Shown here: positions 13,978-31,629 of the stretch, piece by piece
Layout: each line of letters begins with the position of its first letter
Numbering within the stretch: position 1 is the stretch's first letter
NCBI GenBank assembly: GCA_034669905.1
Contig: JAXMOL010000032.1
Span: 25,097-89,096 of the forward strand
Source: Candidatus Hydrogenedentota bacterium
Lineage (GTDB): Bacteria > Hydrogenedentota > Hydrogenedentia > Hydrogenedentales > JAEUWI01
Length of the DNA stretch: 64,000 nt
Direction: 5' to 3'
Made by a program: the position numbers and the translations under genes
The notes under the pieces: model-generated
Told to the model about the DNA's origin: nothing
Seen by the model: only the letters and a program-made list of their open reading frames with translations
The model's database searches: none

Positions 13978-14078
13978 GGCCTCTTGCATCACAACGAGTC
14001 GAATGGGTGTGTTGAAGTGCTCTAAGGCGTTCACCCTACAACACATTCGTGCAGTTCGCTCGTGTGACTCTTTGCCTA

Positions 14079-14119
14079 CTATATCATGTATGGTCGATAA
14101 TCACCAACACAATATATAG
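14079..14119. promoter_or_regulatory. Tandem NrdR-box-like motifs (31-bp spacing)
   Basis: CTATATCATG (14079) and CAATATATAG (14110) upstream of the HDOD kinase. Confidence 0.4.
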
Positions 14120-14268
14120 ATGGCAAATGGAGTCCATCCGCACCCCTGCTTCGCACACACATTCCCCAGGTATCGCTTCATTCCCATGTCTTCGCACCAC
14201 TATAATAGCAGGATTTTCCTGATAAGTGTCAACTTTCTGTCGATCGATTACCCTATACCGACCGGTAG

Positions 14269-16667: not shown

Positions 16668-16923
16668 TGCCTATCCGGCCTCAAGTAGTCGGATAGCCAC
16701 CATCGACACCACCCTAACCATACACTGTGCCCACCCGATCTATTCAAGGATGCCACGAAGCCCCGCCCCTGCCATCTTCCTGGACCCCGATCAGGCGGCG
16801 TTTGGTCGCCCATGAAAAACGATTTTTATAGTTGCAATTGATCAGATCGCCAGCGTAGCATCATTGTAGGTATTGATCACTTCGAAGCAATCGGTTTCAT
16901 ACCGACCAAAGGGAGCACGCGGC

Positions 16924-19900
16924 ATGGGTGACAATCTACGACTGGCAGGTATCGGCGCATTCTTTCTACTGGTGCTGGCAGGCATCGGCTTTCTCGTCAT
17001 GCAGGACGATGGCACCATCCCCGAAGTGGCGCCCGCAAGCACCACGCAGCAAACAAGCGCTCAGGATGGGGGCGATGCCCTGGCCCTCCGATCTGGTGGA
17101 AGAGCCTCGGGTGGCACACCGGCGCCGCAAAGAAATGATGACACACCGGACACTTCCCTGAATACGGAAGCGGTCGAAGAAGAGTCGGCAGAAGACAGCG
17201 CGGGTGATGAACCCCGCAAACGGGCCAGCCGCCCCCGGGGCCCCGGCGTGGTGAAAGGGAAAGTCACGTGGCATGGTGACGGGGCACCCGTCTCCGGTGC
17301 GTCCATCCTGTTGGACTATGTGAAGCGGGAAAACAGTTACGATCCCTATCCCGACGAACGGGCCCAATGGACAGCCCGTTCCAATGAAGACGGGGAATTC
17401 CGTATCACCAATCTTCCCGTGAATCATGTGGCAGGCCGTCGCGGCGGGCGTCTGGTGGTCATTGCGACGAAAGACGGGGCGAGTGCCATCGCGCACGCCG
17501 GCATGACTGACGACGAGACCGATGCCCTCGTCGAGCTGGAATTACGCCCTACATCGGGCATCGGTGGACAAGTCCTGGGCGGTGACGGATCCCCTGTCGC
17601 CGGTGCCGTGGTGCTCCCCCACGAAATCCAGGAAAAGGAATTGGAGCGCACCTCCTATGGCGCTCGAAGCTTATGGGCCCGAACGGGGGCAGACGGCCGT
17701 TTTCAGCTGGACCACATGCCCGAAGGCACGTGGACCCTGGCGGTGCAGGCAAAGTCTTACGCCAATGTAATCTCGGACGCCGTCAAGACGGGCGAAACCA
17801 ACGCACACATCGTGTTAAAGCGGGGCAGTACGGTGAGCGGAACGGTCGTGGAGGCCAACGGCGGTGAGCCCGCTCCCAACGTATTCGTCACGATCAACGA
17901 CCAGAAGAATTACCGCAATCAGCAGCGGGTCAAAACGGACGAGGAGGGGGCCTTTCACGCCGATGCCCTGGCCGACAGCGAGTACATCGTTCATTTGGAA
18001 GACGAGAACCGCATCCTCGTGGGCGAGCCCCCTACCTTCACCATTAGCGACGAAGAGCCGGTGGAGGGCATCAAACTCGCCATCATCGACGGGGGCATTG
18101 TGTCAGGCATGATCACCGACGCGGACACGGGTAACCCCATCGCAGGGGTTCGCATTCGCGCCCGGGGCAATAATCGTTCGACCAATCGCTCCCTGGAGGG
18201 CAGCAGCGACGCCACGGGATACTACCAGATCACCGGGATGCCCGGGGGCAGCTACACCTTGCAGCGGCGCTGGAAAGAAGGCTATCTCCACGGGGAATCC
18301 CGAGAAAACAAATCGGTGTCGGTCACCTTGGGCGAACACCTCGAGAACATTGATTTCTTGGTGCGGCGCGGCCTCTCGGTGACGGGCATCGTGGTCGATC
18401 AACAGGGTGAGCCGGTGCAAGGGGTCAATGTGGGTTGCCATCCGCTGGTTGACACGGGTGAAGGGGAAAACATATCCACCAAGGAAGACGGCACCTTTGC
18501 GGCCCGGGGCTTTTCGCCCAACGTCGAATTCAATATCCGGGTTAACGGTCGCGGCTACACCGCCCCTATGATGGGCCCCCTCAACACCGGAGAGACGGGA
18601 TTGGAAGACATCAAGATTGTCGTTGAACCGGGAGCCTCTATTGCGGGCGTGGTGGTCGATACGAGTGGGAAACCCCTCTCGGGCATGTCGGTGAGTGCCC
18701 AGAAAGTGGGCGGTGGAAACGGTGGCGGTGCCGAATCTTTGGGCCCGGAAGGCGAATTCCACATCAAGAGCCTGGAAGAAGGCACCTATCAATTGAGTGC
18801 CCGTAACCGCAATTCCTGGGGCCGATCGGATGGGCCCAAAGAGGAGATCACCGTCAGCCAGGGAGAGAAAGTGACGGGGGTGCGGGTGGTATTCGGGGGC
18901 ACCGATGGCGCAACGATTTCCGGAAAAGTCACCAACTCCAAGCGGGAACCGGTCAAGGATGCCAGTGTGCAGGCCTACAGCCAGCAAGGCGGCGGTGGCT
19001 CCTATGTGCAAACGGAGGAAGACGGCACCTTCGAGCTGAGCGTGGAGAAGGATCGCGTCTATCGCGTCGACGTCAATCACCGCGACTACAGCAGTGCCCA
19101 TCGTGAAGAGGTCTCGCCGGGCGAGCGCAATCTGAATATCGAGCTGGAAGGCCGTGGCACGGTGGAAGGCCAGGTGCTCGATGCCACCACAGGACGCCCC
19201 ATACCCAACTTCGAAATTGCCCACCATAAGGGGCATTCGAATGGTATTAATTATCAAAACGGTGGCTATGTCGGCTTCTATGACGAAGATGGCCGTTTCA
19301 GCATTTCCACGGTAGAAGCAGGAGAAGCCACGCTCTACGCACGGGCCAGTGGATACGCCCCCACCTTCCAGCAGATTCCCTACGTCGAGCCCGATGGCGT
19401 CACTGGAGGTATACAGTTCCGGCTCAGTCCCGGTGCCTCTATCGAAGGTGTCGTGTTGAATCTAGAGGGCGCCCCCATCTCGGGTGCGCGCATTTTCCTG
19501 GCGGCGCGGGTGGATGATTGGATGATTCGCCAGGGCAGTGGCTATGGTGCGGTGGCCACCTCCGATGCGAATGGCGCCTTTACCATCGATTCCGTCGGAG
19601 ATGACCTGCCCAAAATCACGGCCGTCCATCCGGATTACCCGAACACCACCATTGATGTCAGTCTTGACCTTGGCCAGGTCACCACCGTCGAAATTATTAT
19701 GACCGGTGGTGCCACCATCGAAGGCACCGTGTCGGCCAATGGTGTCCCCATGGCGAACCAACACGTCTATATCCAAAGCAATCAGGGCGGAGGCCATCAA
19801 TCGACACAAAGCGATGCCAACGGCTTTTACACGATCGAGAAAGTCCCGGCAGGTGAGATTACAGTACACGCGCGGATACAGCGTGACGGGGCAACGAAGA

Positions 19901-20556
19901 CCCAGTCCAAAACGGTCACGGTTCAGGGCGGATACACCACCACGGTCGACCTCGATGTGGAGTTTGGGACCGCAGCCGTGGAAGGTCGATTGACCGTCGG
20001 AGGCCAACCGGTGACCCAGGCCCATGTCGCGGCCATCCGCGTGGGTGGGGACAATACCAGCCCGGAACAGGTTCAGGGCCAGGTGTCACCAGACGGCACC
20101 TACCGCATCGATGGGCTCTCGTCAGGCACCCACCGCATCATGGCCAATGCTGCCGCCCCGGGGTCCGATCAGCGCCGGATGCGCATCATTGAGATCACGG
20201 TTCAAGACGGCCAAACGGTTCAGCTGGACATCGAGTTGGAAGACGGGGCACACATCCGGGGAATAATTTCAGGGGTTTCCGATTCCCGCCGGGTACAAGT
20301 GCTGGCCCTCTCCGGCGCTGTGACGATCACGGATCCGCAGACGGACATGACGTCGCCCGCCATGCAGTCGCTGATGGCGGGCTATTCTTCCGTTGCGGCC
20401 GACGGCAGCTACGATCTCAGCGGGCTGGATGCTGGCCAATATACGGTGGTCGCCCTCGAGTTCGGGCAGAATGGCTATGCCGATGCCGCGTTTGCCACGG
20501 GGACCCTTCAGCTTGGTAACACCGGCGATGGCGCGCTGAACCTCGCTATTCGCTAG
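16924..20556 (+). CDS. Large membrane-anchored carboxypeptidase-regulatory-like (beta-sandwich) repeat protein
   Basis: N-terminal TM; about a dozen GxVxDxxGxPVxGAxV...TDxxGxF repeats; ATG 16924 with GGGAG RBS. Confidence 0.85.
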   Translation: MGDNLRLAGIGAFFLLVLAGIGFLVMQDDGTIPEVAPASTTQQTSAQDGGDALALRSGGRASGGTPAPQRNDDTPDTSLNTEAVEEESAEDSAGDEPRKRASRPRGPGVVKGKVTWHGDGAPVSGASILLDYVKRENSYDPYPDERAQWTARSNEDGEFRITNLPVNHVAGRRGGRLVVIATKDGASAIAHAGMTDDETDALVELELRPTSGIGGQVLGGDGSPVAGAVVLPHEIQEKELERTSYGARSLWARTGADGRFQLDHMPEGTWTLAVQAKSYANVISDAVKTGETNAHIVLKRGSTVSGTVVEANGGEPAPNVFVTINDQKNYRNQQRVKTDEEGAFHADALADSEYIVHLEDENRILVGEPPTFTISDEEPVEGIKLAIIDGGIVSGMITDADTGNPIAGVRIRARGNNRSTNRSLEGSSDATGYYQITGMPGGSYTLQRRWKEGYLHGESRENKSVSVTLGEHLENIDFLVRRGLSVTGIVVDQQGEPVQGVNVGCHPLVDTGEGENISTKEDGTFAARGFSPNVEFNIRVNGRGYTAPMMGPLNTGETGLEDIKIVVEPGASIAGVVVDTSGKPLSGMSVSAQKVGGGNGGGAESLGPEGEFHIKSLEEGTYQLSARNRNSWGRSDGPKEEITVSQGEKVTGVRVVFGGTDGATISGKVTNSKREPVKDASVQAYSQQGGGGSYVQTEEDGTFELSVEKDRVYRVDVNHRDYSSAHREEVSPGERNLNIELEGRGTVEGQVLDATTGRPIPNFEIAHHKGHSNGINYQNGGYVGFYDEDGRFSISTVEAGEATLYARASGYAPTFQQIPYVEPDGVTGGIQFRLSPGASIEGVVLNLEGAPISGARIFLAARVDDWMIRQGSGYGAVATSDANGAFTIDSVGDDLPKITAVHPDYPNTTIDVSLDLGQVTTVEIIMTGGATIEGTVSANGVPMANQHVYIQSNQGGGHQSTQSDANGFYTIEKVPAGEITVHARIQRDGATKTQSKTVTVQGGYTTTVDLDVEFGTAAVEGRLTVGGQPVTQAHVAAIRVGGDNTSPEQVQGQVSPDGTYRIDGLSSGTHRIMANAAAPGSDQRRMRIIEITVQDGQTVQLDIELEDGAHIRGIISGVSDSRRVQVLALSGAVTITDPQTDMTSPAMQSLMAGYSSVAADGSYDLSGLDAGQYTVVALEFGQNGYADAAFATGTLQLGNTGDGALNLAIR

Positions 20557-20636: not shown

Positions 20637-21242
20637 TCAGTCGGAGTCTTTCTCCGGCTCCGGCGCGTCAAACCCATAGAGCATGAGCAAATCCAGGTGC
20701 CGTTTCAGCGTGCTCTGAATCGACTCATCCGTGCGGTGGCCCACCCGTTGCGCCCGGGGCGTGCCGGCCCACACTTCATTCTCTCCGACATTCTTGGTGA
20801 CGATGCTGCGGGGCAGTATGACCGCACCCCGGCCAATCTTCACCCCCGGCATAATATAGCTGTGATTTCCGATAAAACAGTTTTCACCAATAATTATGGG
20901 ATCACTCTGGTGGGGCGTCAGGCGCCAATGGACATCGGTACCCCGGAAACTGTGGTTCATATCACGAATCACGCTGTAGGCTTCAATACACGTATTGTTG
21001 CCAATCTCAACGTAGTCGTTCCCGGCGATAAGCACGTGGTCTTGCAACACGACGTCGTCGCCCACCATAATCTTTCCGCGCTTGTGGGTGCGCATGAGGA
21101 CATTGTTATACACCGTGCAGCGGGCACCCAATTCGACGTGCCCCTTTATCTCCAGGTGCTCTGCCTGGAAGGTGCAGCCCTCCCCCACGCGCTTGAATAG
21201 ACGCTTATGCCGACGCTGTCGCCACGTTTCGAAAATACTCAT
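20637..21242 (-). CDS. Left-handed beta-helix (hexapeptide repeat) acyltransferase
   Basis: IRDMNH, PIIIGENCFIG, IMPGVKIGRGAVI, VTKNV..VWAG motifs. Confidence 0.88.
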   Translation of the reverse strand: MSIFETWRQRRHKRLFKRVGEGCTFQAEHLEIKGHVELGARCTVYNNVLMRTHKRGKIMVGDDVVLQDHVLIAGNDYVEIGNNTCIEAYSVIRDMNHSFRGTDVHWRLTPHQSDPIIIGENCFIGNHSYIMPGVKIGRGAVILPRSIVTKNVGENEVWAGTPRAQRVGHRTDESIQSTLKRHLDLLMLYGFDAPEPEKDSD

Positions 21243-21492
21243 GGTAGTCATCCTTTGGCGGTATTTTACGGATGCGGTCGCTGCGGCTCAATATTCTACC
21301 GCCGGATGTCGAAAAGAAGGGTACGAACATCACACCGCGACGTGCCCGCCCCAACCTTGCCATTGGCTTCCGAGCGTCCCATTTCCTGCCGGGACCGATG
21401 GATACCAAAGTGGGACAGCTTCCCGCATAACGTATTGATTTCAGACAACTTAACCGATTAAATCCCGAAAAGTACGGAAAAAATCCGGCGGT

Positions 21493-21583
21493 GTACATTT
21501 TTGTACTTGCAGATGTTCCCCATACATGATAGTATTTGTTCCAACATATAGTGTAGACACTGCGTCACCACGCCTATATGTTG
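21493..21583 (+). promoter_or_regulatory. Composite promoter: GTACA-N4-TGTAC palindrome, sigma70 promoter, tandem NrdR-like boxes
   Basis: GTACATTTTTGTAC 21493-21506; TTGCAG (21507)-N17-TAGTAT (21530) with extended TGn; CAACATATAG (21542) and CTATATGTTG (21574). Confidence 0.6.
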
Positions 21584-21626
21584 TGTCAAGTCAACAACGC
21601 GATCAATTGGGAAGCAGCCTACGACC

Positions 21627-23303
21627 ATGGGTGCCCGTGTCCTTCTATATGTTGTGCCAGGTTTGCCGCTACACGTGGAAGATCTGATGCCCCAAGCGCT
21701 TCCGGCCCGTTGCGCCGGCGTGCTCCGCGCACACGGTCACCGCGTCTTGATCGTCGACGACGGGACGGTAGACGCTATCGATAACGTCACCGATAGCACG
21801 CTCCAAACGCAACTCACCGAGCGCCTGGAAACGGCCAGCCCTGAAAAGCGCGCCTGGACCGCCCTTATCCCCACCGCCCGCACCGCCTATTACCGCGCGC
21901 TCGACACCTGCCGGACGTTGCGAATCGAACGGGCATTGGCGGACAACACGGTCGGGCCCATTCCTCCCCAACTGGCCGTCATTTTTGCCCATCGGCGAAA
22001 AGACCTGCGGGAGGGGCTGAAGCTTGCCACGGCACTGAAACACCGCTGGCCCGATTGCTGTGTGGCCCTGGCGGGTGAAATGGCCCGTAGTTTCGGACGG
22101 CAGATTCTGACGCGCTGCGCGGCGGTCGACGCCATCTGTGGCACCGCGCCGGAAGCGGCTATTGCGGGACTCGCAGTACACTGGAACAACCAGGGCAACT
22201 GGCATCAGATACCCGGGCTGCTCAGTCGTGCCGGAGAGCACGAATTGCAGGAAACCCCGTCGGCGACGACCATGCCCGCCCATGCCCCACCGATCTATCA
22301 CCCGGAAGTCTATCCGGCTATATTGGACGGTGGAAAGTTCCGCCTGTTCACCCTGCGCCAGAGCGCGGGATATACACACATGGGGCATTATCGCGGGGGA
22401 CAACGCAACGCCATCCAGTCGCGCACGGTTCGACAACTCCGAGCGGAGATGCTGGCCCTGTATGAGCTCTTTGGCACGCGTACCTTCCACGTGGAGGGGG
22501 AGCACACCCCGGAGCAAGCGATCATCGAACTGGCCAACGCCTGCCAGGGGCTTCCCTTTCCCGTCGACTACAGCCGAGACACCCACGTTTTTGAAATCCG
22601 GCCCAAGACCGTAGCCCACCTGTCGGCTTCCGGCTGCCGGGCGCTTCGTTTTTCCCTGTTAACCGGCAGTCAGATGACCTTGACGGATTACTTTGGTGAG
22701 AACTGGACCATCAGCCACGTGGACCGCTGCCTGCGCCTCTGTCGCGATGCGGGCCTCTATGTGCACGGCGATCTCATTCACCCGGTTCCCGTTGATGACT
22801 ACCACACGCGCGCCGAAACCATACGGCTGCTTCACCGGTGCCGTCCCGACGGGTTGCGTATCCATCTGCCCCGGTTGATTCCCGGGAGTGCCTGGCACCA
22901 GCATGCGGCGGAATTCGAGTTTCTGGTGGACGCCAAACGGGTGGGATTGTGGACCGACGCACCCGACCTGGAATTGACCCGGGCCCAGGAAGCATCCTTA
23001 TATCCCCACCGATTTGGTGGCGGCCAACGCAGCTCGGTCTTGCAGCGCCTCGCGTCCTTCGAAGCCGATCTGGAGCATTTCCCCGTACCCGTGGAAAGTG
23101 GATGCCAATCCGGCTTACTGGCCCGGGTATCAGGACACGTCGGCACCGAACAGCCCTATATCCAGGGGTTGGAACGGGCCGCGAAGACCTTGGATATTTC
23201 GGCGATGCGGGAGTACGTTGACACGTTCAACATCCACGCGACGGCGACCATAAACACCCTCGATTTTCATCGAACCGCGGCCAAAAAAGTAGTGGGGAAC
23301 TAA
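21627..23303 (+). CDS. B12-binding/radical-SAM-like protein lacking the CxxxCxxC motif (probable pseudoenzyme)
   Basis: Class-B architecture (LRAHGHRV, VALAG, VDAICG..PE, IPGL, SGC..L.F...TGSQ, PGS); the cluster motif position reads SAGYTHMGHYR. Confidence 0.7.
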   Translation: MGARVLLYVVPGLPLHVEDLMPQALPARCAGVLRAHGHRVLIVDDGTVDAIDNVTDSTLQTQLTERLETASPEKRAWTALIPTARTAYYRALDTCRTLRIERALADNTVGPIPPQLAVIFAHRRKDLREGLKLATALKHRWPDCCVALAGEMARSFGRQILTRCAAVDAICGTAPEAAIAGLAVHWNNQGNWHQIPGLLSRAGEHELQETPSATTMPAHAPPIYHPEVYPAILDGGKFRLFTLRQSAGYTHMGHYRGGQRNAIQSRTVRQLRAEMLALYELFGTRTFHVEGEHTPEQAIIELANACQGLPFPVDYSRDTHVFEIRPKTVAHLSASGCRALRFSLLTGSQMTLTDYFGENWTISHVDRCLRLCRDAGLYVHGDLIHPVPVDDYHTRAETIRLLHRCRPDGLRIHLPRLIPGSAWHQHAAEFEFLVDAKRVGLWTDAPDLELTRAQEASLYPHRFGGGQRSSVLQRLASFEADLEHFPVPVESGCQSGLLARVSGHVGTEQPYIQGLERAAKTLDISAMREYVDTFNIHATATINTLDFHRTAAKKVVGN

Positions 23304-23311
23304 CGCAGACT

Positions 23312-24556
23312 ATGAAGTCACATGCTGTCGTAGTTACGGGAATTGGCGTACTTTCCTGCAATGGATTGGGGCGGGAGGCCTATTGGGATGCGATCTCCAA
23401 TGGTGTTTCCGGAATTCGACCGGTCACGCGCTTTGACGCTGGCGATCTCCCCTGCCAGATTGCAGGCGAATTGCTGGATTTCAATCCCGAAGACTTTATG
23501 AAGAAAAGCGTGGTCCGCAATTGGAACCGCCATGTGCATCAGGCGCTCGCCTGCTCACGCCTTGCGGTAGAAGATGCCGACCTGAAATCCGCCAAGTATG
23601 ATCCCGAACGTATCGCCGTGGGCATTGGCACCAGCATTGGATCGCCCGATGAGGCCTACGAAGGCAGCCAGCTGGCCATGGAAACCTCGGGCTACAAAAA
23701 AATCAACAAGCTGGCCTCTTCGGCCTTCTCCGGCCACTCCGCGACGGTCCATGTTTCTGTCGACATCGGAATACGGGGCCCGGCTATCACGATATCCAGT
23801 GGCTGCGCCACGGGACTGGATGCCCTGATGTGGGGCTTCAATCAGATTCGCATGGGGCAGGTCGAAGCCGCGGTCGTCGGGGCCACCGAGTCCCCCATTT
23901 TCCCCCTCTCCATGGCGTCTGCCTGCTCGTTGGGCATCTTGTCCAAGCGCAATAACGAACCCCAATCGGCCATGCGCCCCTTTGATCGTCATCGGGACGG
24001 AATTGTGCTCAGTGAAGGGGCCTGCACGGTGGTGCTGGAGCGGGAAGACACGGCCCGGGCACGGGGCGCCCAGATTCTCGGCGTCGTCGCGGGTTGTGGC
24101 TCGGCCGCCGAAGGAACGAATCCCCTGATTCTGGACCGGGAAGGAAAATCCCTGGCGGATGCCATTGAGCGCACCCTCCGCAGTTCGGGCGTTACGACCC
24201 GCGAAATCGATTGCATACAGGCCCATGGGGTCTCTCTCGACATGTACGACCGGTGCGAGACCAATGCCTACAAACGGGTCTTTGGCGATGATGCCTACCG
24301 CATTCCCGTGAGTGCCGTAAAGTCAATGATCGGCCAATCCTATTCGGCTGGAGGACTGCTGGGATTCGCGGCCGCCCTCCTGTCGCTGAACCGGGACATT
24401 ATCTCCCCCACCTTGAATCTGGATGACCCCGATCCCCTGTGTGATCTCGACTTCGTGCCCAAACTGGCCCGACTCAACGACGTGGGCGCCGCCCTGGTGG
24501 TAGCTATCAGCTTTGGCGGTACGCACAGCGCAACCATTGTCCGGAGAGCCGCCTGA
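23312..24556 (+). CDS. FabF-like beta-ketoacyl synthase with non-canonical triad (Cys-His-Gln)
   Basis: VVVTGIG, SSGCATG (Cys), RPFD..RDG...EGA, QAHG, KSMIGQS, SFGGT. Confidence 0.88.
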   Translation: MKSHAVVVTGIGVLSCNGLGREAYWDAISNGVSGIRPVTRFDAGDLPCQIAGELLDFNPEDFMKKSVVRNWNRHVHQALACSRLAVEDADLKSAKYDPERIAVGIGTSIGSPDEAYEGSQLAMETSGYKKINKLASSAFSGHSATVHVSVDIGIRGPAITISSGCATGLDALMWGFNQIRMGQVEAAVVGATESPIFPLSMASACSLGILSKRNNEPQSAMRPFDRHRDGIVLSEGACTVVLEREDTARARGAQILGVVAGCGSAAEGTNPLILDREGKSLADAIERTLRSSGVTTREIDCIQAHGVSLDMYDRCETNAYKRVFGDDAYRIPVSAVKSMIGQSYSAGGLLGFAAALLSLNRDIISPTLNLDDPDPLCDLDFVPKLARLNDVGAALVVAISFGGTHSATIVRRAA

Positions 24557-24558
24557 CT

Positions 24559-27087
24559 GTGTGGGATTATAATTACATAGGCACCTCGGTCTTGCTGGTA
24601 ATGGCCGTCATTTCCAGCTGCCTGCTGGGCGGTGTCGTGTTTTTTCGGAATCCCGAGCGCACCACGCACAAGGCCTTTGCCGTCCTCACCCTGAATCTTG
24701 CGCTCTGGGCCCTGGGCGTGTTGCTGATCATACATTCGCACACCTACGACACGGCCCGGCTCTGGATCATGGTCACCTTCGGCGTGGCCACCTTTCTCCC
24801 CGCAACCTTCTACCATTTCATTGGCCATTTCCCCGACCAGACCTTCCGCGGTATGCGGTGGTATCTCTACCTCCTCTTCGCTTCCGCCCTCGTCTTGACC
24901 GGACTGGTCAACACGGAATGGTATATTCTCGATCTTCAGGTGAGTCCTTTCTCCCCGCCCAGCGTGGTCTATGGCCCCGTATTCAAGGCCTACACCCTGA
25001 TGATCGTGGCCACGCTGATCCTCATGTCCGCCAACCTCATCCGCAAACTGCGCCGTGCCGAAGGCATCGAACGCCGCCAGTTGGAGCATGTGCTGGGCTC
25101 CATCCTCGGTGGCCTCGGCTTTGCCATCGCCACCAACGTCATCGCCCCCTTCTTTGGTGTGGGCGATATGGAACTCTACGGACCCTGCTTTCTGGTTCTG
25201 ATGATGGCCGGTCTGGCCTACTCCATGATCCGGTATCACCTGCTTGATATCTGGTTCATCGTCTCCCGCACCACGACATACGCCATCGTCACGGCCGCTG
25301 TGTTCATCTTGTTCTCCTCGGTTGTTACCCTCGTAAATATCGTCCACCGGGTATTCCGCACGGCCGATACCCCCGCCTACGAGTACCTGGCCATCGCCCT
25401 GACCTCCCTGGTCGTCGCGATCATCATCCAGCCCCTCCGGGAACACGCCCAACTGCTTATCGATCGGGCCATTCGCCACCGCCGCTACGATACCGAGGCC
25501 CTTACGCAACGGGTCAGCCGCCTGGCCAGTCAATTTGTTCAGCTCGATGACATCATGGAGCGGGTCTTCCTCGACTTTCGCCAGACGATGGGGGTCACTG
25601 GACTGCGGGTCCTCCTCGCCAGCCCCCAGGGCGATGGCAATCTGGTAGCCGCCTTCAGCACGCCCTTGGACAGTGGCACCCGTGCACGCAACTCGAATTT
25701 CGTGCTGGAATATATTCGAAAGAATCCCGAGCCGCTCATCCTGGATGAACTGGCGCACCAGGGCAGGACTCCCAATCGCCAACGGCTCATCCACCATATG
25801 GAAAGCCTGGGCGCACAGGTGCTTATTCCGCTGGTCACCAATTCCGGCGTCTTGGGGATGATCATCCTGCGCAAGAAAGAAAACGGCGACATTTACACCC
25901 AGGACGATCAGCGGGTCTTTGCCACGGTCGCTGCGCCGCTCGCCGCCGCTATCGAGAATGCACGGCTTTATGGACGCCTGGAAGAACTGAACGTACACCT
26001 CGAACTCATCTTGCGTAATATGCGGGGCACGGTCATCGCCGTAGATACCAAGGGGGTCATTACCACCATCAACCAGGAAGGCCGGTCCCTCTTTCCAGAT
26101 ATCGCGCCCGGTATGGCCCTGGGCGTCCTGGATGCCAAGGTGGCCCATCTTCTCCAGATGACACTGGACAACCGCCGTGGTATTCTGGATGTGGAAACGA
26201 CGATTTGTGGGGGCAAGACGGATGAGATTCCGGTGGCCATGTCCACCTCCTGTTTGGAGACACCGGAACAGAGCACCACGCTGGGAGCCATGGTACTCAT
26301 TCATGACATGACCCAGATCAAACGTCTGGAAAGCAATGTGCAGCGGGCGGATCGGTTGACGTCTATCGGTACGATGGCCGCTGGCATGGCCCATGAGATT
26401 AAGAACCCGCTCCAGTCGATCAAGACCTTTACGCAGCTGCTCTTAGACCGCTACGACGATGCGGATTTTCGAATGACGTTTGCCGAAGTGGTACCGCCGG
26501 AAGTGGATCGTATTGACAACATTGTCACGCGGCTCCTCCACTTCGCCCGGCCCCAGCCCGTGTCATTCAACCTGCACGACGTCCGACAGATAATCCGCGA
26601 GGTCTTTGCGCTCGTGGAGAATCAGATGCACAAAGAAGGCATCGAGCTTCGCCTCCATCTCCCGGAAAAGCCGATAGGCGTCATGGCCGATGACCAGCAA
26701 TTACACCAGGTGTTCCTGAATCTGGTGCTCAATGCCATAGAAGCCATGCGGGAGACCTCGTCCAACTTCATCGAGGTCCGCATCCAGACCGGCCTGACCC
26801 ACCTCCAACAACCGGGCACCCAGGTACGCCACGACGTGCCCTGTGTCAAGGTGGTCATCTCGGATTCGGGCTGTGGCATTTCCCGCGAAAACCTGAAACA
26901 ACTCTTCACGCCCTTCTTCACGACGAAAGCCGATGGCAGTGGCCTCGGGCTCTCGGTCGTGCATCGTATCATCACAGAACATCGCGGCATTATAGACGTC
27001 GACAGCAATCCCGGAGTCGGGTCATCCTTTACGGTGACGTTCCCGCTGGCCGGCAACACGGAATCCAAGGAAAGGGTCGGCACATGA
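24559..27087 (+). CDS. Membrane sensor histidine kinase (7TM-type input, GAF, PAS, HisKA, HATPase; PrsK-like layout)
   Basis: Many N-terminal TMs ending in YSMIRYHLLDI; GAF (LIPLV...AAAIENARLY); AHEIKNPL; DSGCGI and GSGLGL. Confidence 0.9.
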   Translation: MWDYNYIGTSVLLVMAVISSCLLGGVVFFRNPERTTHKAFAVLTLNLALWALGVLLIIHSHTYDTARLWIMVTFGVATFLPATFYHFIGHFPDQTFRGMRWYLYLLFASALVLTGLVNTEWYILDLQVSPFSPPSVVYGPVFKAYTLMIVATLILMSANLIRKLRRAEGIERRQLEHVLGSILGGLGFAIATNVIAPFFGVGDMELYGPCFLVLMMAGLAYSMIRYHLLDIWFIVSRTTTYAIVTAAVFILFSSVVTLVNIVHRVFRTADTPAYEYLAIALTSLVVAIIIQPLREHAQLLIDRAIRHRRYDTEALTQRVSRLASQFVQLDDIMERVFLDFRQTMGVTGLRVLLASPQGDGNLVAAFSTPLDSGTRARNSNFVLEYIRKNPEPLILDELAHQGRTPNRQRLIHHMESLGAQVLIPLVTNSGVLGMIILRKKENGDIYTQDDQRVFATVAAPLAAAIENARLYGRLEELNVHLELILRNMRGTVIAVDTKGVITTINQEGRSLFPDIAPGMALGVLDAKVAHLLQMTLDNRRGILDVETTICGGKTDEIPVAMSTSCLETPEQSTTLGAMVLIHDMTQIKRLESNVQRADRLTSIGTMAAGMAHEIKNPLQSIKTFTQLLLDRYDDADFRMTFAEVVPPEVDRIDNIVTRLLHFARPQPVSFNLHDVRQIIREVFALVENQMHKEGIELRLHLPEKPIGVMADDQQLHQVFLNLVLNAIEAMRETSSNFIEVRIQTGLTHLQQPGTQVRHDVPCVKVVISDSGCGISRENLKQLFTPFFTTKADGSGLGLSVVHRIITEHRGIIDVDSNPGVGSSFTVTFPLAGNTESKERVGT

Positions 27088-29003
27088 ACGTAATTCTCGT
27101 CATCGCGGAAACGGCGGCCGTTTGGGAATCACTGCGGGCGGCGCTACCGGACGGCGATCTCGTCCTCCATGAACGGGATGTCGCCACGGCCCGGCGCCGA
27201 ATCACCACCGTGGCAGTAGACGCTATCCTGCTCGACGAAAGCAGCTCGAAGGGTGAAGACTTCGTGGAAACCGTCAAGGACATGGCCCCGGGCATCCCCC
27301 TCGCCGTGCTTTCGGGCCGGGAAGACCTCCTTACCCAGGCGGCCCTGACCCGCGCGGGTGCCAATGCCATCGTCACAAAGCCCTTTTCCTGTGAAACATT
27401 GCATGAAGCCATGGACTCCCTGTTACACACCACGATCTTGTCCGATGAGCCCCCCCGCTTGCCCGATGTCTCTCCCGCACCGCCCATGGGCCTGGTGCAG
27501 CACCAGATGGCCCTGCGATGGATCAGTCGCCTGGCCAATTGCCGGGGCGATGGGGAGCGCCTGGCGCGTCGGCTCATTGAAGGTACGCCCGACATTTTCG
27601 ATACGGTACGCTGCACCCTCCTGCTGGAGCGCCGTGGCACCGTACATGTGGCGGCGGCCCATGGCATGCCGGAGCACATTACGGAACAACTTCAGCTTTC
27701 CTTTGAACATGGTCTCATGCACTGGTTTGACAGCCATGCCTGCCTCTTCGACAGTTTCGCCATCCGCTCGGCACCGGAGGCCACCAAGGAACTCCGAATC
27801 TTGCGGGGTGTGCTTGCAGCGCCCCTTATGGACAAGGGGCTGGTTTTCGGCGCACTCGTATTGGGTGAAAAGGCCTCGGGGATGCCCTACAGCCAGGAAG
27901 AACGGGAGCTCCTGACCCTCTTCGCACGCTCCGTCGAAATACTTTTCGAACGGACCGATAATCGCTATGCCGCCACGGCGCCCGCCCTTCCCTCTCAGCA
28001 GGTACTGAACAGTCTCCCAATGGGACTGATTACCGTGTCGGCGGATCGCAAGGTAGCCCTTCTCAATCATAACGCGGAGTCCATCCTGTCGGTCACACGA
28101 CAAGATGCGGTCGGCTCCAGCGTGCAAAAGCTGGGATCGGCCTTCGCCGACGTGGTTCTCCGGGCAATTGCCGATGGCGAGGTACGCAACAACGAGGTCA
28201 TCCGGGAGCCCCGTTCCAACGTCAATCTGAGTGTGAACGTATCGCCTAACGAAGACGGGGGCGCCATTGTAACTTTTCTTCCCCAGCCGGAAGAGGGGAT
28301 CAAGCACGAGGAATTGGCCTACAGCCCCTTCTGGGAGTATCTGTCTACCCGGGTTGCCCAGGAGATCAAGAACCCCATGGTGGCCATCAACACCTTTGCC
28401 CAGTTATTGCCCCGAAAGTATGAATCGGAGGAATTCCGTGATGCCTTCAGCCGGGTGGTGCAGCAGGAGGTCGAGCGGATCAACCGGGTTGTTGAAACCC
28501 TGTTTGAGTTTGCCCGCAACCCGAAACTGCGCCTCCAGCACTGTGATCTGAACGAAACGGTGCGCACGGTCCTGACCTCCTTTCAGCAGGAATTGGACAA
28601 GCACTCCATCAAGCTTGCGCAGAACTATGACCCTCAGGTGACAGAAACGGACATGGATCCGGTATTCTTCTCACAAGCGTTGCACAATATTGTACAAAAC
28701 TCTATCGAAGCCATGCCGACGGGTGGTACCATACAGGTAAGTACTTCGAAACAGGCGGATAAAGTAGAAATTCGGGTTTCTGATTCGGGCCCGGGTATCT
28801 CACAGGAAGATTCCGATCTGGTCTTTCTGCCTTTTTACAGTACGAAAGAGCAAGGTATGGGATTGGGGCTGACTATTGCCAATCGCATTCTCCATCAACA
28901 CCAGGGCGTCTTACGCTGGGTGTCTGATGATAAAAATGGCAACTATTTTGCCTTGGAGATTCCAACCTCGGAGTTAAGTCATGCAGACCATCCTGGCAAT
29001 TGA
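27084..29003 (+). CDS. REC-GAF-PAS histidine-kinase-like protein with His->Gln H-box (pseudokinase)
   Basis: H-box VAQEIKNPM; N, G1, F and G2 boxes intact; degenerate receiver (IAE in place of the acidic pair). Confidence 0.85.
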   Translation: MNVILVIAETAAVWESLRAALPDGDLVLHERDVATARRRITTVAVDAILLDESSSKGEDFVETVKDMAPGIPLAVLSGREDLLTQAALTRAGANAIVTKPFSCETLHEAMDSLLHTTILSDEPPRLPDVSPAPPMGLVQHQMALRWISRLANCRGDGERLARRLIEGTPDIFDTVRCTLLLERRGTVHVAAAHGMPEHITEQLQLSFEHGLMHWFDSHACLFDSFAIRSAPEATKELRILRGVLAAPLMDKGLVFGALVLGEKASGMPYSQEERELLTLFARSVEILFERTDNRYAATAPALPSQQVLNSLPMGLITVSADRKVALLNHNAESILSVTRQDAVGSSVQKLGSAFADVVLRAIADGEVRNNEVIREPRSNVNLSVNVSPNEDGGAIVTFLPQPEEGIKHEELAYSPFWEYLSTRVAQEIKNPMVAINTFAQLLPRKYESEEFRDAFSRVVQQEVERINRVVETLFEFARNPKLRLQHCDLNETVRTVLTSFQQELDKHSIKLAQNYDPQVTETDMDPVFFSQALHNIVQNSIEAMPTGGTIQVSTSKQADKVEIRVSDSGPGISQEDSDLVFLPFYSTKEQGMGLGLTIANRILHQHQGVLRWVSDDKNGNYFALEIPTSELSHADHPGN

Positions 29004-30366
29004 CGACGAAATCAGCATCCGCGAGTCCTACCGTATCATTCTCGGTGATACCTACCGGGTTTATCTGGCGGAAAGCGGCGAGGAAGGGTTGCGTCTCCTC
29101 CAGGAGAAGCACATCGACCTGATCCTGCTGGACCTCAGTATGCCCAAAATGGGCGGGATGGCCTTTCTTGAGGAATTGGAAAAGCGGGGCGAATTGGTGC
29201 CGATTCTCATTGTGACCGGTTCCAACACGGTGGATATTGCCGTAAAAGCCATGAAAAAGGGCGCCCGCGAATTTGTCATCAAGCCCTTCGATGTGGATGA
29301 CCTGCTCCTGTTGGTGGAACGCACCCTGGAAGAACTCCGCGAGAAGCGGGAACTGAGCACCCTTCGGGAGCAAGGGGTCGCCGGCTTTGAGCACATTATC
29401 GGTGATGCTCCCCCGCTCCGGGAAGCGATCGCCGGGGCCCGTCAGGCGATGGAGGTGGATTCGACCGTATTGATCACGGGCGAAACCGGCACCGGAAAAG
29501 ACGTGTTGGCCCGGGCCATCCATTTCGGCGGCACCCGCAAGAGCAAACCCTTTGTACCCCTCTCGTGCTGCGCCATTCCGGCCAACCTGGTGGAGAGCGA
29601 ACTCTTCGGCCTGACCAAGGGCGCTTTCACCGGGGCCACGGAAAACCGCGTCGGGAAGATGCAGGTCGCCGATGGGGGCTCCCTCTTTCTTGATGAAATC
29701 GGCGAAATGCCCATTGAAGCCCAGGGCAAATTGCTCCGTGTCTTACAGGAAGGCACCTTTTACGCCGTGGGCGGAAACCGCGAGATCGAAGTGGATGTGC
29801 GCTTTATCTGCGCCACCAACCGCCCCTTCGACAAAGCCATCGAAGAAGGCCTGTTTCGACAGGACCTCTTTTATCGTATCAACGTCTTGCCCATAATCAT
29901 GCCGCCCCTTCGAAAGCGCCGGGAAGACATCCCCAAATTGATCGCCCACTTCGTGGCCAAGCATGGCCCCCGGGTCAACTCCCGTGTGAAGGACTTCGAG
30001 CCCCGGGCACTTTCCCGCCTCATGTCGTGTCAGTGGCCGGGCAATGTGCGCGAATTGGAAAATACCGTCGAGCGTATTCTGGTGTGCAATCGCAGCGAAT
30101 CGGTGATCAAGGCCGAATTCCTGAATGGCATCGTGGCCAGTGACGGAAGCACCGATGTGAATGCCCTGGAGGACTTCTCCGGACTCCCCTTGCAGGAAGC
30201 GACCCAGCGCCTTGAGCGCCATCTCATCAAGCAGGCCCTGGAACGGTGCGAATTCGTCCAGAGTCAGGCGGCCGAATCGCTGGGGACCACCCGACGCATC
30301 CTGAAATACAAGATGGACCAACTTGGCATCACCGATCCCAGCGACAAGCAGTCCATGGCGAGCTAA
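28981..30366 (+). CDS. Sigma54-dependent response regulator (NtrC/AtoC family)
   Basis: Receiver (IDDE, LLD, KPF), Walker A GETGTGK, GAFTGA, FLDEIGE, WPGNVREL, Fis-type HTH. Confidence 0.95.
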   Translation: MQTILAIDDEISIRESYRIILGDTYRVYLAESGEEGLRLLQEKHIDLILLDLSMPKMGGMAFLEELEKRGELVPILIVTGSNTVDIAVKAMKKGAREFVIKPFDVDDLLLLVERTLEELREKRELSTLREQGVAGFEHIIGDAPPLREAIAGARQAMEVDSTVLITGETGTGKDVLARAIHFGGTRKSKPFVPLSCCAIPANLVESELFGLTKGAFTGATENRVGKMQVADGGSLFLDEIGEMPIEAQGKLLRVLQEGTFYAVGGNREIEVDVRFICATNRPFDKAIEEGLFRQDLFYRINVLPIIMPPLRKRREDIPKLIAHFVAKHGPRVNSRVKDFEPRALSRLMSCQWPGNVRELENTVERILVCNRSESVIKAEFLNGIVASDGSTDVNALEDFSGLPLQEATQRLERHLIKQALERCEFVQSQAAESLGTTRRILKYKMDQLGITDPSDKQSMAS

Positions 30367-30729: not shown

Positions 30730-31629
30730 ATGAGTATCACCGTCGTCGGATCCGTTGGTCTGGACACTGTGGAAACGCCTTCGGGCAAGAACGAAGAAGG
30801 ACTGGGCGGCGCGGCCGTCTATTTCAGTCTTGCAGCGGCCAACCTCACCCAGGTAAACCTGGTCGCCATCGTCGGTGACGATTTCCCCGAGGCCCACGTG
30901 GCGCTCCTCGAATCCAAGCACATCAATCTGGATGGGCTGGAACGGGCCGAAGGAAAGACCTTCCGCTGGACCGGCAAATACCACGACGATGTGAACGAAC
31001 GGGACACGCTGGATACGCAGCTCAACGTGTTTGCCGACTTCCACCCGAAAGTGCCCGAGGCCGCCTGCACGGCCCCCTATCTCTTTCTGGGCAACATCCA
31101 CCCTTCCCTGCAGTTGGAAGTGTTGGACCAGGCGAAATCGGAATTTGTTGGTCTGGACACGATGAATCTCTGGATTGACATCACCCTGGACGATCTCAAG
31201 GCCGTGCTGAAGCGGGTGAACTGCCTCATTATTAACGACGGCGAGGCCAAGCAGCTCACGGGACAACTGAATCTCCGCGACGCCGCTAAGGATATCCAGG
31301 CGATGGGTCCGGACATCGTGGTGATCAAAAAGGGCGAGCATGGCTGCATGCTTTTTGGGGCCGATGGCGAAATCTTTGCGATTCCCGCGTTCCCCCTGGA
31401 AGAGGTGAAAGACCCCACCGGTGCCGGCGATAGCTTCGCGGGCGGGTTCATGGGTTATATCGCCACCCAGGATGCCACGGACTTTGACACCCTGCGCCAG
31501 GCCGTGGTCTATGGCAGCGCCATGGCTTCCTTCACCTGTGAGGCCTTCGGACCGGACGCCCTTTCCACGGTCGACAAGGCCAAGCTGGAAGCGCGCTACA
31601 CGGCCTTTCGCCAGTTGACGAACTTCTAA
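30730..31629 (+). CDS. PfkB/ribokinase-family carbohydrate or nucleoside kinase
   Basis: GGAAVY, IKKGEHG, DPTGAGDSFAGG; AAGGAG RBS. Confidence 0.92.
   Translation: MSITVVGSVGLDTVETPSGKNEEGLGGAAVYFSLAAANLTQVNLVAIVGDDFPEAHVALLESKHINLDGLERAEGKTFRWTGKYHDDVNERDTLDTQLNVFADFHPKVPEAACTAPYLFLGNIHPSLQLEVLDQAKSEFVGLDTMNLWIDITLDDLKAVLKRVNCLIINDGEAKQLTGQLNLRDAAKDIQAMGPDIVVIKKGEHGCMLFGADGEIFAIPAFPLEEVKDPTGAGDSFAGGFMGYIATQDATDFDTLRQAVVYGSAMASFTCEAFGPDALSTVDKAKLEARYTAFRQLTNF

Follow-up and report, generated by a model that had tools for sequence, protein, structure and literature searches.

Within a 64,000-nucleotide stretch of a Candidatus Hydrogenedentota bacterium genome (assembly GCA_034669905.1, contig JAXMOL010000032.1, positions 25,097 to 89,096; hereafter the window), five co-directional open reading frames (ORFs), P0001 to P0005, span positions 21627-30366, with gaps of 8 and 2 bp at the first two junctions and overlaps of 4 and 23 bp at the last two (Table 1). 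They encode a protein with the fold of cobalamin-dependent radical S-adenosylmethionine (SAM) enzymes, a ketosynthase (KS), a membrane sensor histidine kinase (HK1), a soluble kinase-fold protein (HK2), and a sigma54 activator, and each is single-copy in this genome. A preliminary description had listed the five genes, their spacing, and three catalytic-residue substitutions, in the radical-SAM-like protein, the KS, and HK2; all of these were confirmed when the ORFs, junctions, and residues were re-read.

Orthologs were searched for in 135 Hydrogenedentota genomes, some of them incomplete, with thresholds of 1e-120 for the KS, 1e-70 for HK2, and 1e-40 for the radical-SAM-like protein, and were recovered for the KS in 84 genomes, for HK2 in 83, and for the radical-SAM-like protein in 126. 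All five genes followed one another in the same order in 49 of the 80 loci fetched around KS or HK2 matches, and no alternative order was found; the remaining 31 loci were mostly truncated by contig ends, with genome G021 representing a clean loss of the KS gene, and among the relative loci compared no activator was present behind HK2 in G018 and G120. Ratios of nonsynonymous to synonymous substitution rates (dN/dS), calculated for 14 genome pairs of which some were near saturation, were 0.00-0.10 for the KS, 0.02-0.13 for HK2, and 0.09-0.22 for the radical-SAM-like gene (0.12 against the nearest relative), with a range of 0.00-0.13 across the KS, HK2, and activator. Given these low pairwise ratios and the invariant residues described below, decay is ruled out, and the Hydrogenedentota operon is under purifying selection. 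The outcome named beforehand as fatal to the proposal, orthologs with canonical residues and without synteny, did not appear: gene order was kept in relatives, as were the glutamines of the KS and HK2, and only the loss of the cysteine triad in the radical-SAM-like protein was not uniform. Treatment of the three substitutions as a single event is not supported, the KS change being ancient and common to several phyla and the HK2 glutamine and radical-SAM decay being specific to Hydrogenedentota. Synteny, residues, and dN/dS thus bear out a real, conserved unit joining altered enzymes to a relay of a kinase, a His-less kinase, and a sigma54 activator; no description of it was found in the literature searched, subscription papers and bioRxiv supplements lying outside that search.

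Table 1. Features of the operon region, in window coordinates.
Feature	Position	Strand	Remarks
Hexapeptide-repeat acyltransferase	20637..21251	-	Divergent from operon; Pfam Hexapep; old but optional neighbour
Predicted sigma70-type promoter (TTGCAG, 17 nt, TAGTAT)	21507..21535	+	Sequence
NrdR-type box 1	21539..21554	n/a	Score 15.6, matrix trained without this genome
NrdR-type box 2	21571..21586	n/a	Score 16.5; 16-bp linker from box 1
Possible third NrdR-type box, within first codons of radical-SAM-like gene	21642..21657	n/a	Score 13.1
P0001, cobalamin-domain/radical-SAM-fold pseudoenzyme, 558 aa, no Cys triad	21627..23303	+	
P0002, FabF-fold KS, Cys165/His305/Gln342, HGTST changed to HGVSL	23312..24556	+	
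P0003 (HK1), 7TM-GAF-PAS sensor histidine kinase, His612 intact	24559..27087	+	Domain search
P0004 (HK2), soluble REC-GAF-PAS kinase-fold protein, His replaced by Gln426	27084..29003	+	
P0005, NtrC-type sigma54 activator: Asp51, Walker A/B, GAFTGA, Fis helix-turn-helix (HTH)	28981..30366	+	
PfkB-family kinase; in many relatives probably the sixth gene of the unit	30733..31629	+	

The KS P0002 lacks the Cys-His-His triad of FabF (KAS II), Gln342 occupying the position of the second histidine of FabF. Cys165, His305, Lys337, and Gln342 were each present in 70 of 70 covering alignment rows. The best solved relatives of P0002 were FabFs, its score against TIGR03150 (342.6 bits) fell below the FabF cut-off of 493.75, and a canonical FabF is encoded elsewhere in this genome. 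A KS tree whose outgroup consisted of three FabFs only placed the family in one clade (48 rows, support 99), with Gln ancestral, a single switch to Asn, and both threonines of the HGTST motif changed. P0002 therefore resembles FabF in fold, sequence, cysteine, first histidine, and lysine, and FabH-type enzymes in its amide third residue, but differs from FabF at the second histidine and in HGTST, and its clade is always tied to signalling genes. The term "Cys-His-Gln" was not found in the literature looked through for it. Given the invariant Cys, His, and Lys and an amide-only third position (Gln or Asn), much like the Cys-His-Asn triad of FabH (PMC10869286), we infer that the KS is an active enzyme. 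With its altered HGTST motif, which argues against ordinary elongation, the KS is unlikely to be a normal malonyl elongase and may catalyze either one condensation or acyl transfer and release.

HK1 has the domain order HisKA_7TM-GAF-PAS-HisKA-HATPase, where 7TM denotes seven transmembrane segments, and His612 of its HisKA domain was found in 68 of 68 covering rows. HK2 has the order REC-GAF-PAS-HisKA-HATPase, and Gln426 takes the place of the phospho-accepting histidine; 69 of 69 covering loci have Gln there as well (70 of 70 with the window). Other functional positions of HK2 were kept: Glu427 and Asn430 in 70 of 70 rows, Asp51 and Lys99 of the receiver in 67 and 66 of 68, and N539 and D567 of the ATP-binding boxes in 68 of 68. 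Outside the phylum, the counterpart of HK2 carries His at loci L100, L105, L239, L254, L259, L269, and L296 and Asp in Rokubacteria and at L298, and in Brocadia it stops before the kinase domains; its autokinase output is therefore dispensable. The Thr or Asn four residues past the HisKA histidine is needed for phosphatase but not for kinase activity (PMC3510030), and with this phosphatase Asn invariant and the phospho-accepting histidine gone, HK2 is likely a receiver-gated phosphatase or inhibitory partner. P0005 combines REC, sigma54 AAA, and HTH domains with the GAFTGA motif, and rpoN is present in this genome. The 7TM-GAF kinase and sigma54 activator recall PrsK/PrsR of the PEP-CTERM system, an analogy already drawn in the preliminary description, but the operon differs in its enzymes, in an additional PAS domain, and in having a second kinase that lacks the histidine, and its scores fell well below the cut-offs for membership (TIGR02916, 92.4 against 300; TIGR02915, 345.5 against 502.6).

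Related loci outside Hydrogenedentota were collected by two routes. A GTDB motif scan selected for the Gln-type KS matched at least 120 stretches, of which 80 were fetched and resolved into 53 true KS and 27 chance matches. Among the matches listed, 25 true Gln-KS loci were outside the Hydrogenedentota type and came from Brocadia and other Planctomycetota, Rokubacteria/Methylomirabilota, Tectomicrobia, Nitrospirota, Thermodesulfobacteriota, Elusimicrobia, and one acidobacterium; an HK1-type kinase was the next gene after the KS in 18 of these 25. The second route, 80 metagenome loci picked by intact radical-SAM orthologs and hence independent of the KS residue, yielded the radical-SAM gene, the KS, and the 7TM kinase together in 23 loci (15 of the 30 that were at least 12 kb long). 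The third KS residue in 27 metagenome rows was Asn in 16, Gln in 10, and His in one, and the gene order of the window recurred in several outgroup loci (L239, L254, L259, L269, L296, and L298). FadL-like genes accompanied seven of the 23 module loci and two GTDB loci, five of them confirmed by Pfam; MetA-type porins were found in three outgroup loci, ICMT methyltransferases in four, and extra intact B12 radical-SAM genes in several outgroup versions of the module. FadL has reportedly been the subject of one study of the handling of long-chain acyl-homoserine lactone signals. The best explanation is that the Hydrogenedentota operon is a form of an old KS/7TM-kinase module found across phyla.

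Some outgroup loci showed further arrangements. At L102:5408-6478, L222:279-1448, and L277:4106-5242, proteins of 357-390 amino acids matching only a sigma54 DNA-binding domain are encoded just upstream of the module activator. At L256, L262, L266, and L267, intact radical-SAM orthologs without the relay stand behind proteins of about 1240 amino acids with kinase, AAA, and TPR domains and before nucleotidyl- and glycosyltransferases. In one Brocadia genome (L128:12107-15004), an insertion encoding a KS that lacks both histidines, a canonical KS, and an acyl carrier protein (ACP) separates the activator from the radical-SAM gene. A ladderane link through likeness of L128 to kuste2802-2805 (cluster sources: PMC2649909, PMC4790861, PMC9204698, PMC12053348, and bioRxiv 10.64898/2026.05.19.726425) was rejected: kuste2802 is AcpS, and kuste2803 is shorter with a different N-terminus, orthology being judged by eye, and not by a sequence search, against Table S2 of PMC4790861 and the alignment.

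P0001 contains no CxxxCxxC motif, and its match to Pfam Radical_SAM was below threshold (22.1 bits, cut-off 29.5). Its AlphaFold2 model (predicted local distance difference test score 85) matched in Foldseek the full cobalamin-domain and barrel enzymes TsrM, AprD4, and MgmA at template modelling scores of about 0.55-0.59, with TsrM on top, and the model, the Foldseek matches, and the Atlas neighbours all gave a Rossmann cobalamin domain plus a partial TIM barrel. Conserved motifs were GSQ, PxxxDDxHTxxET, and a VGN-type C-terminus. The cysteine triad was absent from 55 of 64 Hydrogenedentota orthologs and kept in nine, in two nested groups, which excludes a loss of the cluster in the whole phylum; it was present, with an aromatic residue, in 71 of 72 outgroup orthologs, and in 42 of the best 150 library matches. 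The Brocadia orthologs carry CX4CX2C, a cluster variant reported for OxsB (PMC9204698). The GGxH, GEGE, and SAM-ribose Glu signatures, chosen in part from the alignment, were each found in one of 61 orthologs within the phylum, as against 60-65 of 72 outgroup orthologs (GGxH 65, GEGE 60). P0001 thus shares with cobalamin-dependent radical SAM enzymes (TsrM, AprD4, OxsB, and CysS) a predicted two-domain fold and has intact orthologs in other phyla, but lacks the triad and the SAM and cobalamin signatures and is kept as an orphan behind NrdR-type boxes. Selection was alike in genes with the triad (dN/dS 0.12-0.15, three pairs) and without it (0.09-0.22, 11 pairs). On a FastTree tree, a two-way Fitch parsimony count gave two changes; because the outgroups are intact and motif remnants survive, we read the history as loss-only, by which our own count would put the losses of the triad at four or more.

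In 20 loci from genomes without KS or HK2 matches, the radical-SAM-like gene was intact and mostly alone, with intermediates in G098 and G042 (followed by HK1) and in G129 (followed by the activator); all 20 of these loci, in which the relay is absent or incomplete, kept the GSQ motif and an upstream box scoring at least 14. Since the gene persists where relay genes are missing, the current role of P0001, as read from these alignments and loci, is non-radical and does not need the relay. This independence and the NrdR-type promoter described below are the best-supported new points, and the earlier suggestion that the radical-SAM fold serves the relay as a cobalamin or SAM sensor is weakened, both by the eroded signatures and by retention of the gene in relay-less genomes. 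Residues 542-558 of P0001 form a low-confidence tail with a conserved VGN-type end (VGN in 47 of 64 orthologs) that is absent from outgroup orthologs and could possibly be a docking or degradation motif. C-terminal VGN was rejected as a proteome-wide tag, being neither enriched nor similar to the tmRNA tag, and P0001 was rejected as a missing adenosyltransferase, a PduO-type enzyme being already present in the genome. A separate observation concerns an NrdD-like protein with an ATP-cone-like N-terminus and no glycyl-radical motif (G000:C22:102770-105058, L323, P0277; also L345-L361). Each of the 18 low-scoring NrdD loci that were inspected encodes such a glycyl-radical-less protein, which several genomes carry in addition to a true NrdD and which may represent a second pseudoenzyme of nucleotide metabolism.

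The regions upstream of the radical-SAM-like gene were enriched for a 16-bp quasi-palindrome. With a matrix trained on 55 relatives and then counted on 56 regions that included those 55, two or more boxes were found in 53 of 56 regions (shuffles: 4 of 560), with a spacing between boxes of 30-32 bp in 69 of 109 cases; a box scoring at least 14 was present in all 20 loci outside the training set. The pair upstream of P0001, with a 32-bp pitch, ranked first among the genome's 12 tandem pairs. A stricter tandem pattern gave 51 sites in 27 of 41 genomes, against two sites for a reversed-pattern control; 12 of them lay before the radical-SAM-like gene and 11 at 0.4-2.9 kb before nrdJ. In this genome, nrdR is present (G000:C5:155536-155982) with a box pair in front, and an adenosylcobalamin (AdoCbl)-type nrdJ lies on contig C94, where the gene upstream of nrdJ, which from its sequence we take to be thyX, is preceded by a 31-bp pair. 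The box pair was found in none of the 74 outgroup loci. A -35/-10 pair similar to that in the window was present in 45 of 56 orthologous upstream regions, a count made without a shuffle control. NrdR sites are described as 16-bp boxes with fixed C4, A6, A8, T9, T11, and G13 and a 15-16-bp linker, in regulon promoters of nrdAB, nrdJ, and nrdDG (PMC13584703), and the window boxes match all six fixed positions and the linker. The likeness to the NrdR regulon extends to the position next to a predicted promoter and to the same pairs before nrdJ; the difference from that regulon is that the target here is a pseudoenzyme with a two-component relay and not a reductase. Because NrdR represses when deoxyadenosine triphosphate (dATP) rises (PMC13584703), expression of the operon would be expected while DNA is being actively synthesized.

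Two other modes of control were rejected: autoregulation by sigma54, with positive feedback from the operon's own activator, as a strong -24/-12 site occurred in 0 of 56 upstream regions, and use of the boxes as an operator for that activator, as they persist where it is missing. Further NrdR-type boxes were seen at G000 C42:51434, C35:36967, and C48:38582, before genes that we recognise as gyrB, PBP2, and murC, as well as before nrdR (C5:156068), and the NrdR regulon may cover cell-cycle genes in Hydrogenedentota. Elsewhere in the window, a strong single box (14107-14122, score 15.3) with a weak partner 31 bp off lies just upstream of a minus-strand gene for 1017 amino acids (10993-14046). 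A near-identical tandem pair was repeated in G008:C1 (four sites), G006 (three), and G002 (one), suggesting a mobile element with NrdR-type boxes at its end.

We tentatively favour, at slightly less than an even chance, a make-and-sense lipid-signal module in which a KS-made signal is read by the 7TM kinase and the operon lies behind predicted NrdR boxes. The Cys-His-Gln KS would turn acyl-ACP into a hydrophobic signal that reaches the 7TM domain of HK1, FadL porins and tailoring enzymes being added in outgroup loci; HK1 would autophosphorylate and then phosphorylate the sigma54 activator; and HK2, without autophosphorylation, would be a predicted phosphatase or brake acting via its HisKA phosphatase Asn and phosphorylatable receiver. 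The ancestral B12 radical-SAM enzyme would have tailored the signal, its chemistry having been lost repeatedly in Hydrogenedentota, where it would now have a separate, non-catalytic job, and NrdR with dATP would repress the transcript, leaving the operon on while DNA precursors are being used. The idea of lipid-signal synthesis and sensing, one of two offered in the preliminary description, gains indirect support from the amide-only KS site, from the FadL porins and tailoring enzymes elsewhere, and from decay of the 7TM domain after KS loss. This decay was seen in three kinases from KS-less genomes, which had lost 15 of 40, 15 of 39, and 10 of 40 conserved 7TM residues (38%, 38%, and 25%), compared with a median loss of 5% (maximum 17%) among 72 genomes that carry the KS. 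The constraint on the sensor domain thus depends on the KS; the remaining domains of the G021 kinase were normal.

Several points weigh against this proposal. The kinases of G042 and G098 were decayed in other domains too, and G042 belongs to the same family as G021, which leaves G021 as the only clean case; moreover, 7TM decay fits equally well a KS that acts as a bound co-sensor. The KS is more conserved than the kinase (52-97% identity), contrary to what a signal with "dialects" would lead one to expect. No FadL gene was found in 100 Hydrogenedentota loci scanned, this genome holding one remote FadL-like gene, and no dedicated carrier-protein or release gene was noticed in the window operon, which gives secretion in Hydrogenedentota no support. 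The GTDB scan selected for Gln, and 27 of the 80 matches fetched from it were due to chance. As for the boxes, whose matrix was counted largely on its own training regions, none was found before the nrdA and nrdD-like genes of this genome; in relatives a pair was present in two of eight nrdA loci and none of 12 true nrdD loci, 11 of the latter having a single box. The first gene may be the only one that the boxes serve.

The explanation that survives best beside the lipid-signal module, although we consider it unlikely on balance, is that the KS is itself a co-sensor: acyl chains from acyl-ACP would be loaded on Cys165 without condensation, and the protein would bind the cytoplasmic loops of the 7TM kinase and report the state of fatty-acid synthesis. 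The remodelled malonyl-side residues of the 48-row clade (His to Gln or Asn, both threonines changed) are in keeping with this, as are the tight coupling of the KS and kinase genes across phyla, the Rokubacteria and Tectomicrobia loci with KS and kinase but no tailoring enzyme, and the losses in G021, which hit predicted cytoplasmic-loop and periplasmic-side positions in our reading of the topology. However, the FadL and MetA-type outer-membrane channels and the variable tailoring enzymes of other phyla suggest a small molecule that crosses the envelope, and up to four genes separate the KS from the kinase in L072, L106, L222, L270, and L277.

It is decidedly improbable, in our estimate, that the boxes serve the first gene only, with P0001 acting without catalysis as an accessory in replication or DNA-precursor metabolism (as an NrdJ partner, for example) and the relay genes being passengers, an arrangement compatible with either role of the KS. 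Such an accessory would explain why the radical-SAM-like gene is more widespread than the KS and HK2 genes and keeps its GSQ motif and box where the relay is missing, and it accords with NrdJ of the AdoCbl type in 38 of 41 genomes and with selection that is indifferent to the triad. Against it stand the eroded cobalamin-domain signatures, the PduO-type adenosyltransferase already present, and the pairs before the presumed gyrB and PBP2 genes, which may make the regulon simply growth-linked. There is very little likelihood that P0001 is still an enzyme that tailors the KS product, as a cobalamin methyltransferase of the non-radical kind represented by TsrM: TsrM needs no radical and is the top match to a fully kept two-domain fold, and intact orthologs adjoin the KS in other phyla, but the SAM-ribose Glu and cobalamin-domain motifs are lost, and each of the two genes is kept at loci that lack the other. 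Strain-specific decay, chance adjacency, or a part in ladderane or routine fatty-acid synthesis is largely refuted and barely credible, for although the anammox bacterium Brocadia carries the module and L128 lies beside extra KS genes and an ACP, the residues are invariant and under purifying selection, many non-anammox phyla have the module, and canonical FabF is encoded elsewhere.

The closest functional analogy to the lipid-signal module is phcBSRQ of Ralstonia, one operon with a lipid-signal enzyme, a membrane kinase, a soluble protein with a receiver plus kinase domains, and a response regulator (PMC8578825). The putative synthase differs, being a FabF-fold KS (ancestrally with a B12 radical-SAM enzyme) here and a methyltransferase in Phc (PMC8578825). 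Also unlike phcBSRQ are the predicted HisKA_7TM receptor, the sigma54 activator as output, and the NrdR-type boxes of the present operon. Of the features of Phc-like quorum sensing, linkage of the putative synthase gene to a membrane kinase and regulator was found, and positive feedback by the operon's own activator was not, as the absent sigma54 promoters indicate. By analogy, the operon would work like phcBSRQ, and by the comparisons made above it is not a member of the phcBSRQ family, PrsK/PrsR, FabF, or the radical-SAM enzymes.

Among the neighbouring genes, the PfkB gene, which like the tandem boxes at 21539-21586 had escaped the preliminary description, directly follows the activator with the same orientation in 31 of 49 genomes; the solved structure closest to its product, 3kd6, bears no more specific name than PfkB carbohydrate kinase. 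The divergent hexapeptide acyltransferase pointed out in the preliminary description is indeed there, but is an optional neighbour only, being divergent from the radical-SAM-like gene in 12 of 54 relatives and 3 of 20 further loci. Beside it, a membrane-anchored protein of 1227 amino acids with carboxypeptidase-regulatory-like repeats is encoded at 16873-20556, an adjacency seen only in two close relatives.

In its broadest form, which we hold to be rather doubtful, the proposal would amount to a new class of lipid autoinducer, with a Cys-His-Gln/Asn FabF-fold synthase, B12 radical-SAM tailoring, and a HisKA_7TM receptor, in at least eight phyla; in one phylum it would be wired under the dATP sensor NrdR to broadcast or read the state of DNA replication, its tailoring enzyme having turned into a near-universal pseudoenzyme of DNA-precursor metabolism. 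We know of no ligand for HisKA_7TM kinases, and if the lipid-signal module is real, these widespread kinases would gain a ligand class and a testable circuit, the FabF fold a ketosynthase type with an amide triad, and anammox bacteria, Rokubacteria, Nitrospirota, and Hydrogenedentota a candidate cell-cell signal. In P0001 and its orthologs, the passage from a B12 radical-SAM enzyme to a pseudoenzyme can be followed as a clean evolutionary series in which selection stayed constant. The NrdR link, predicted from the boxes and testable with one DNA fragment and one small protein, would bring a signalling operon into the NrdR regulon and couple signalling with DNA replication.

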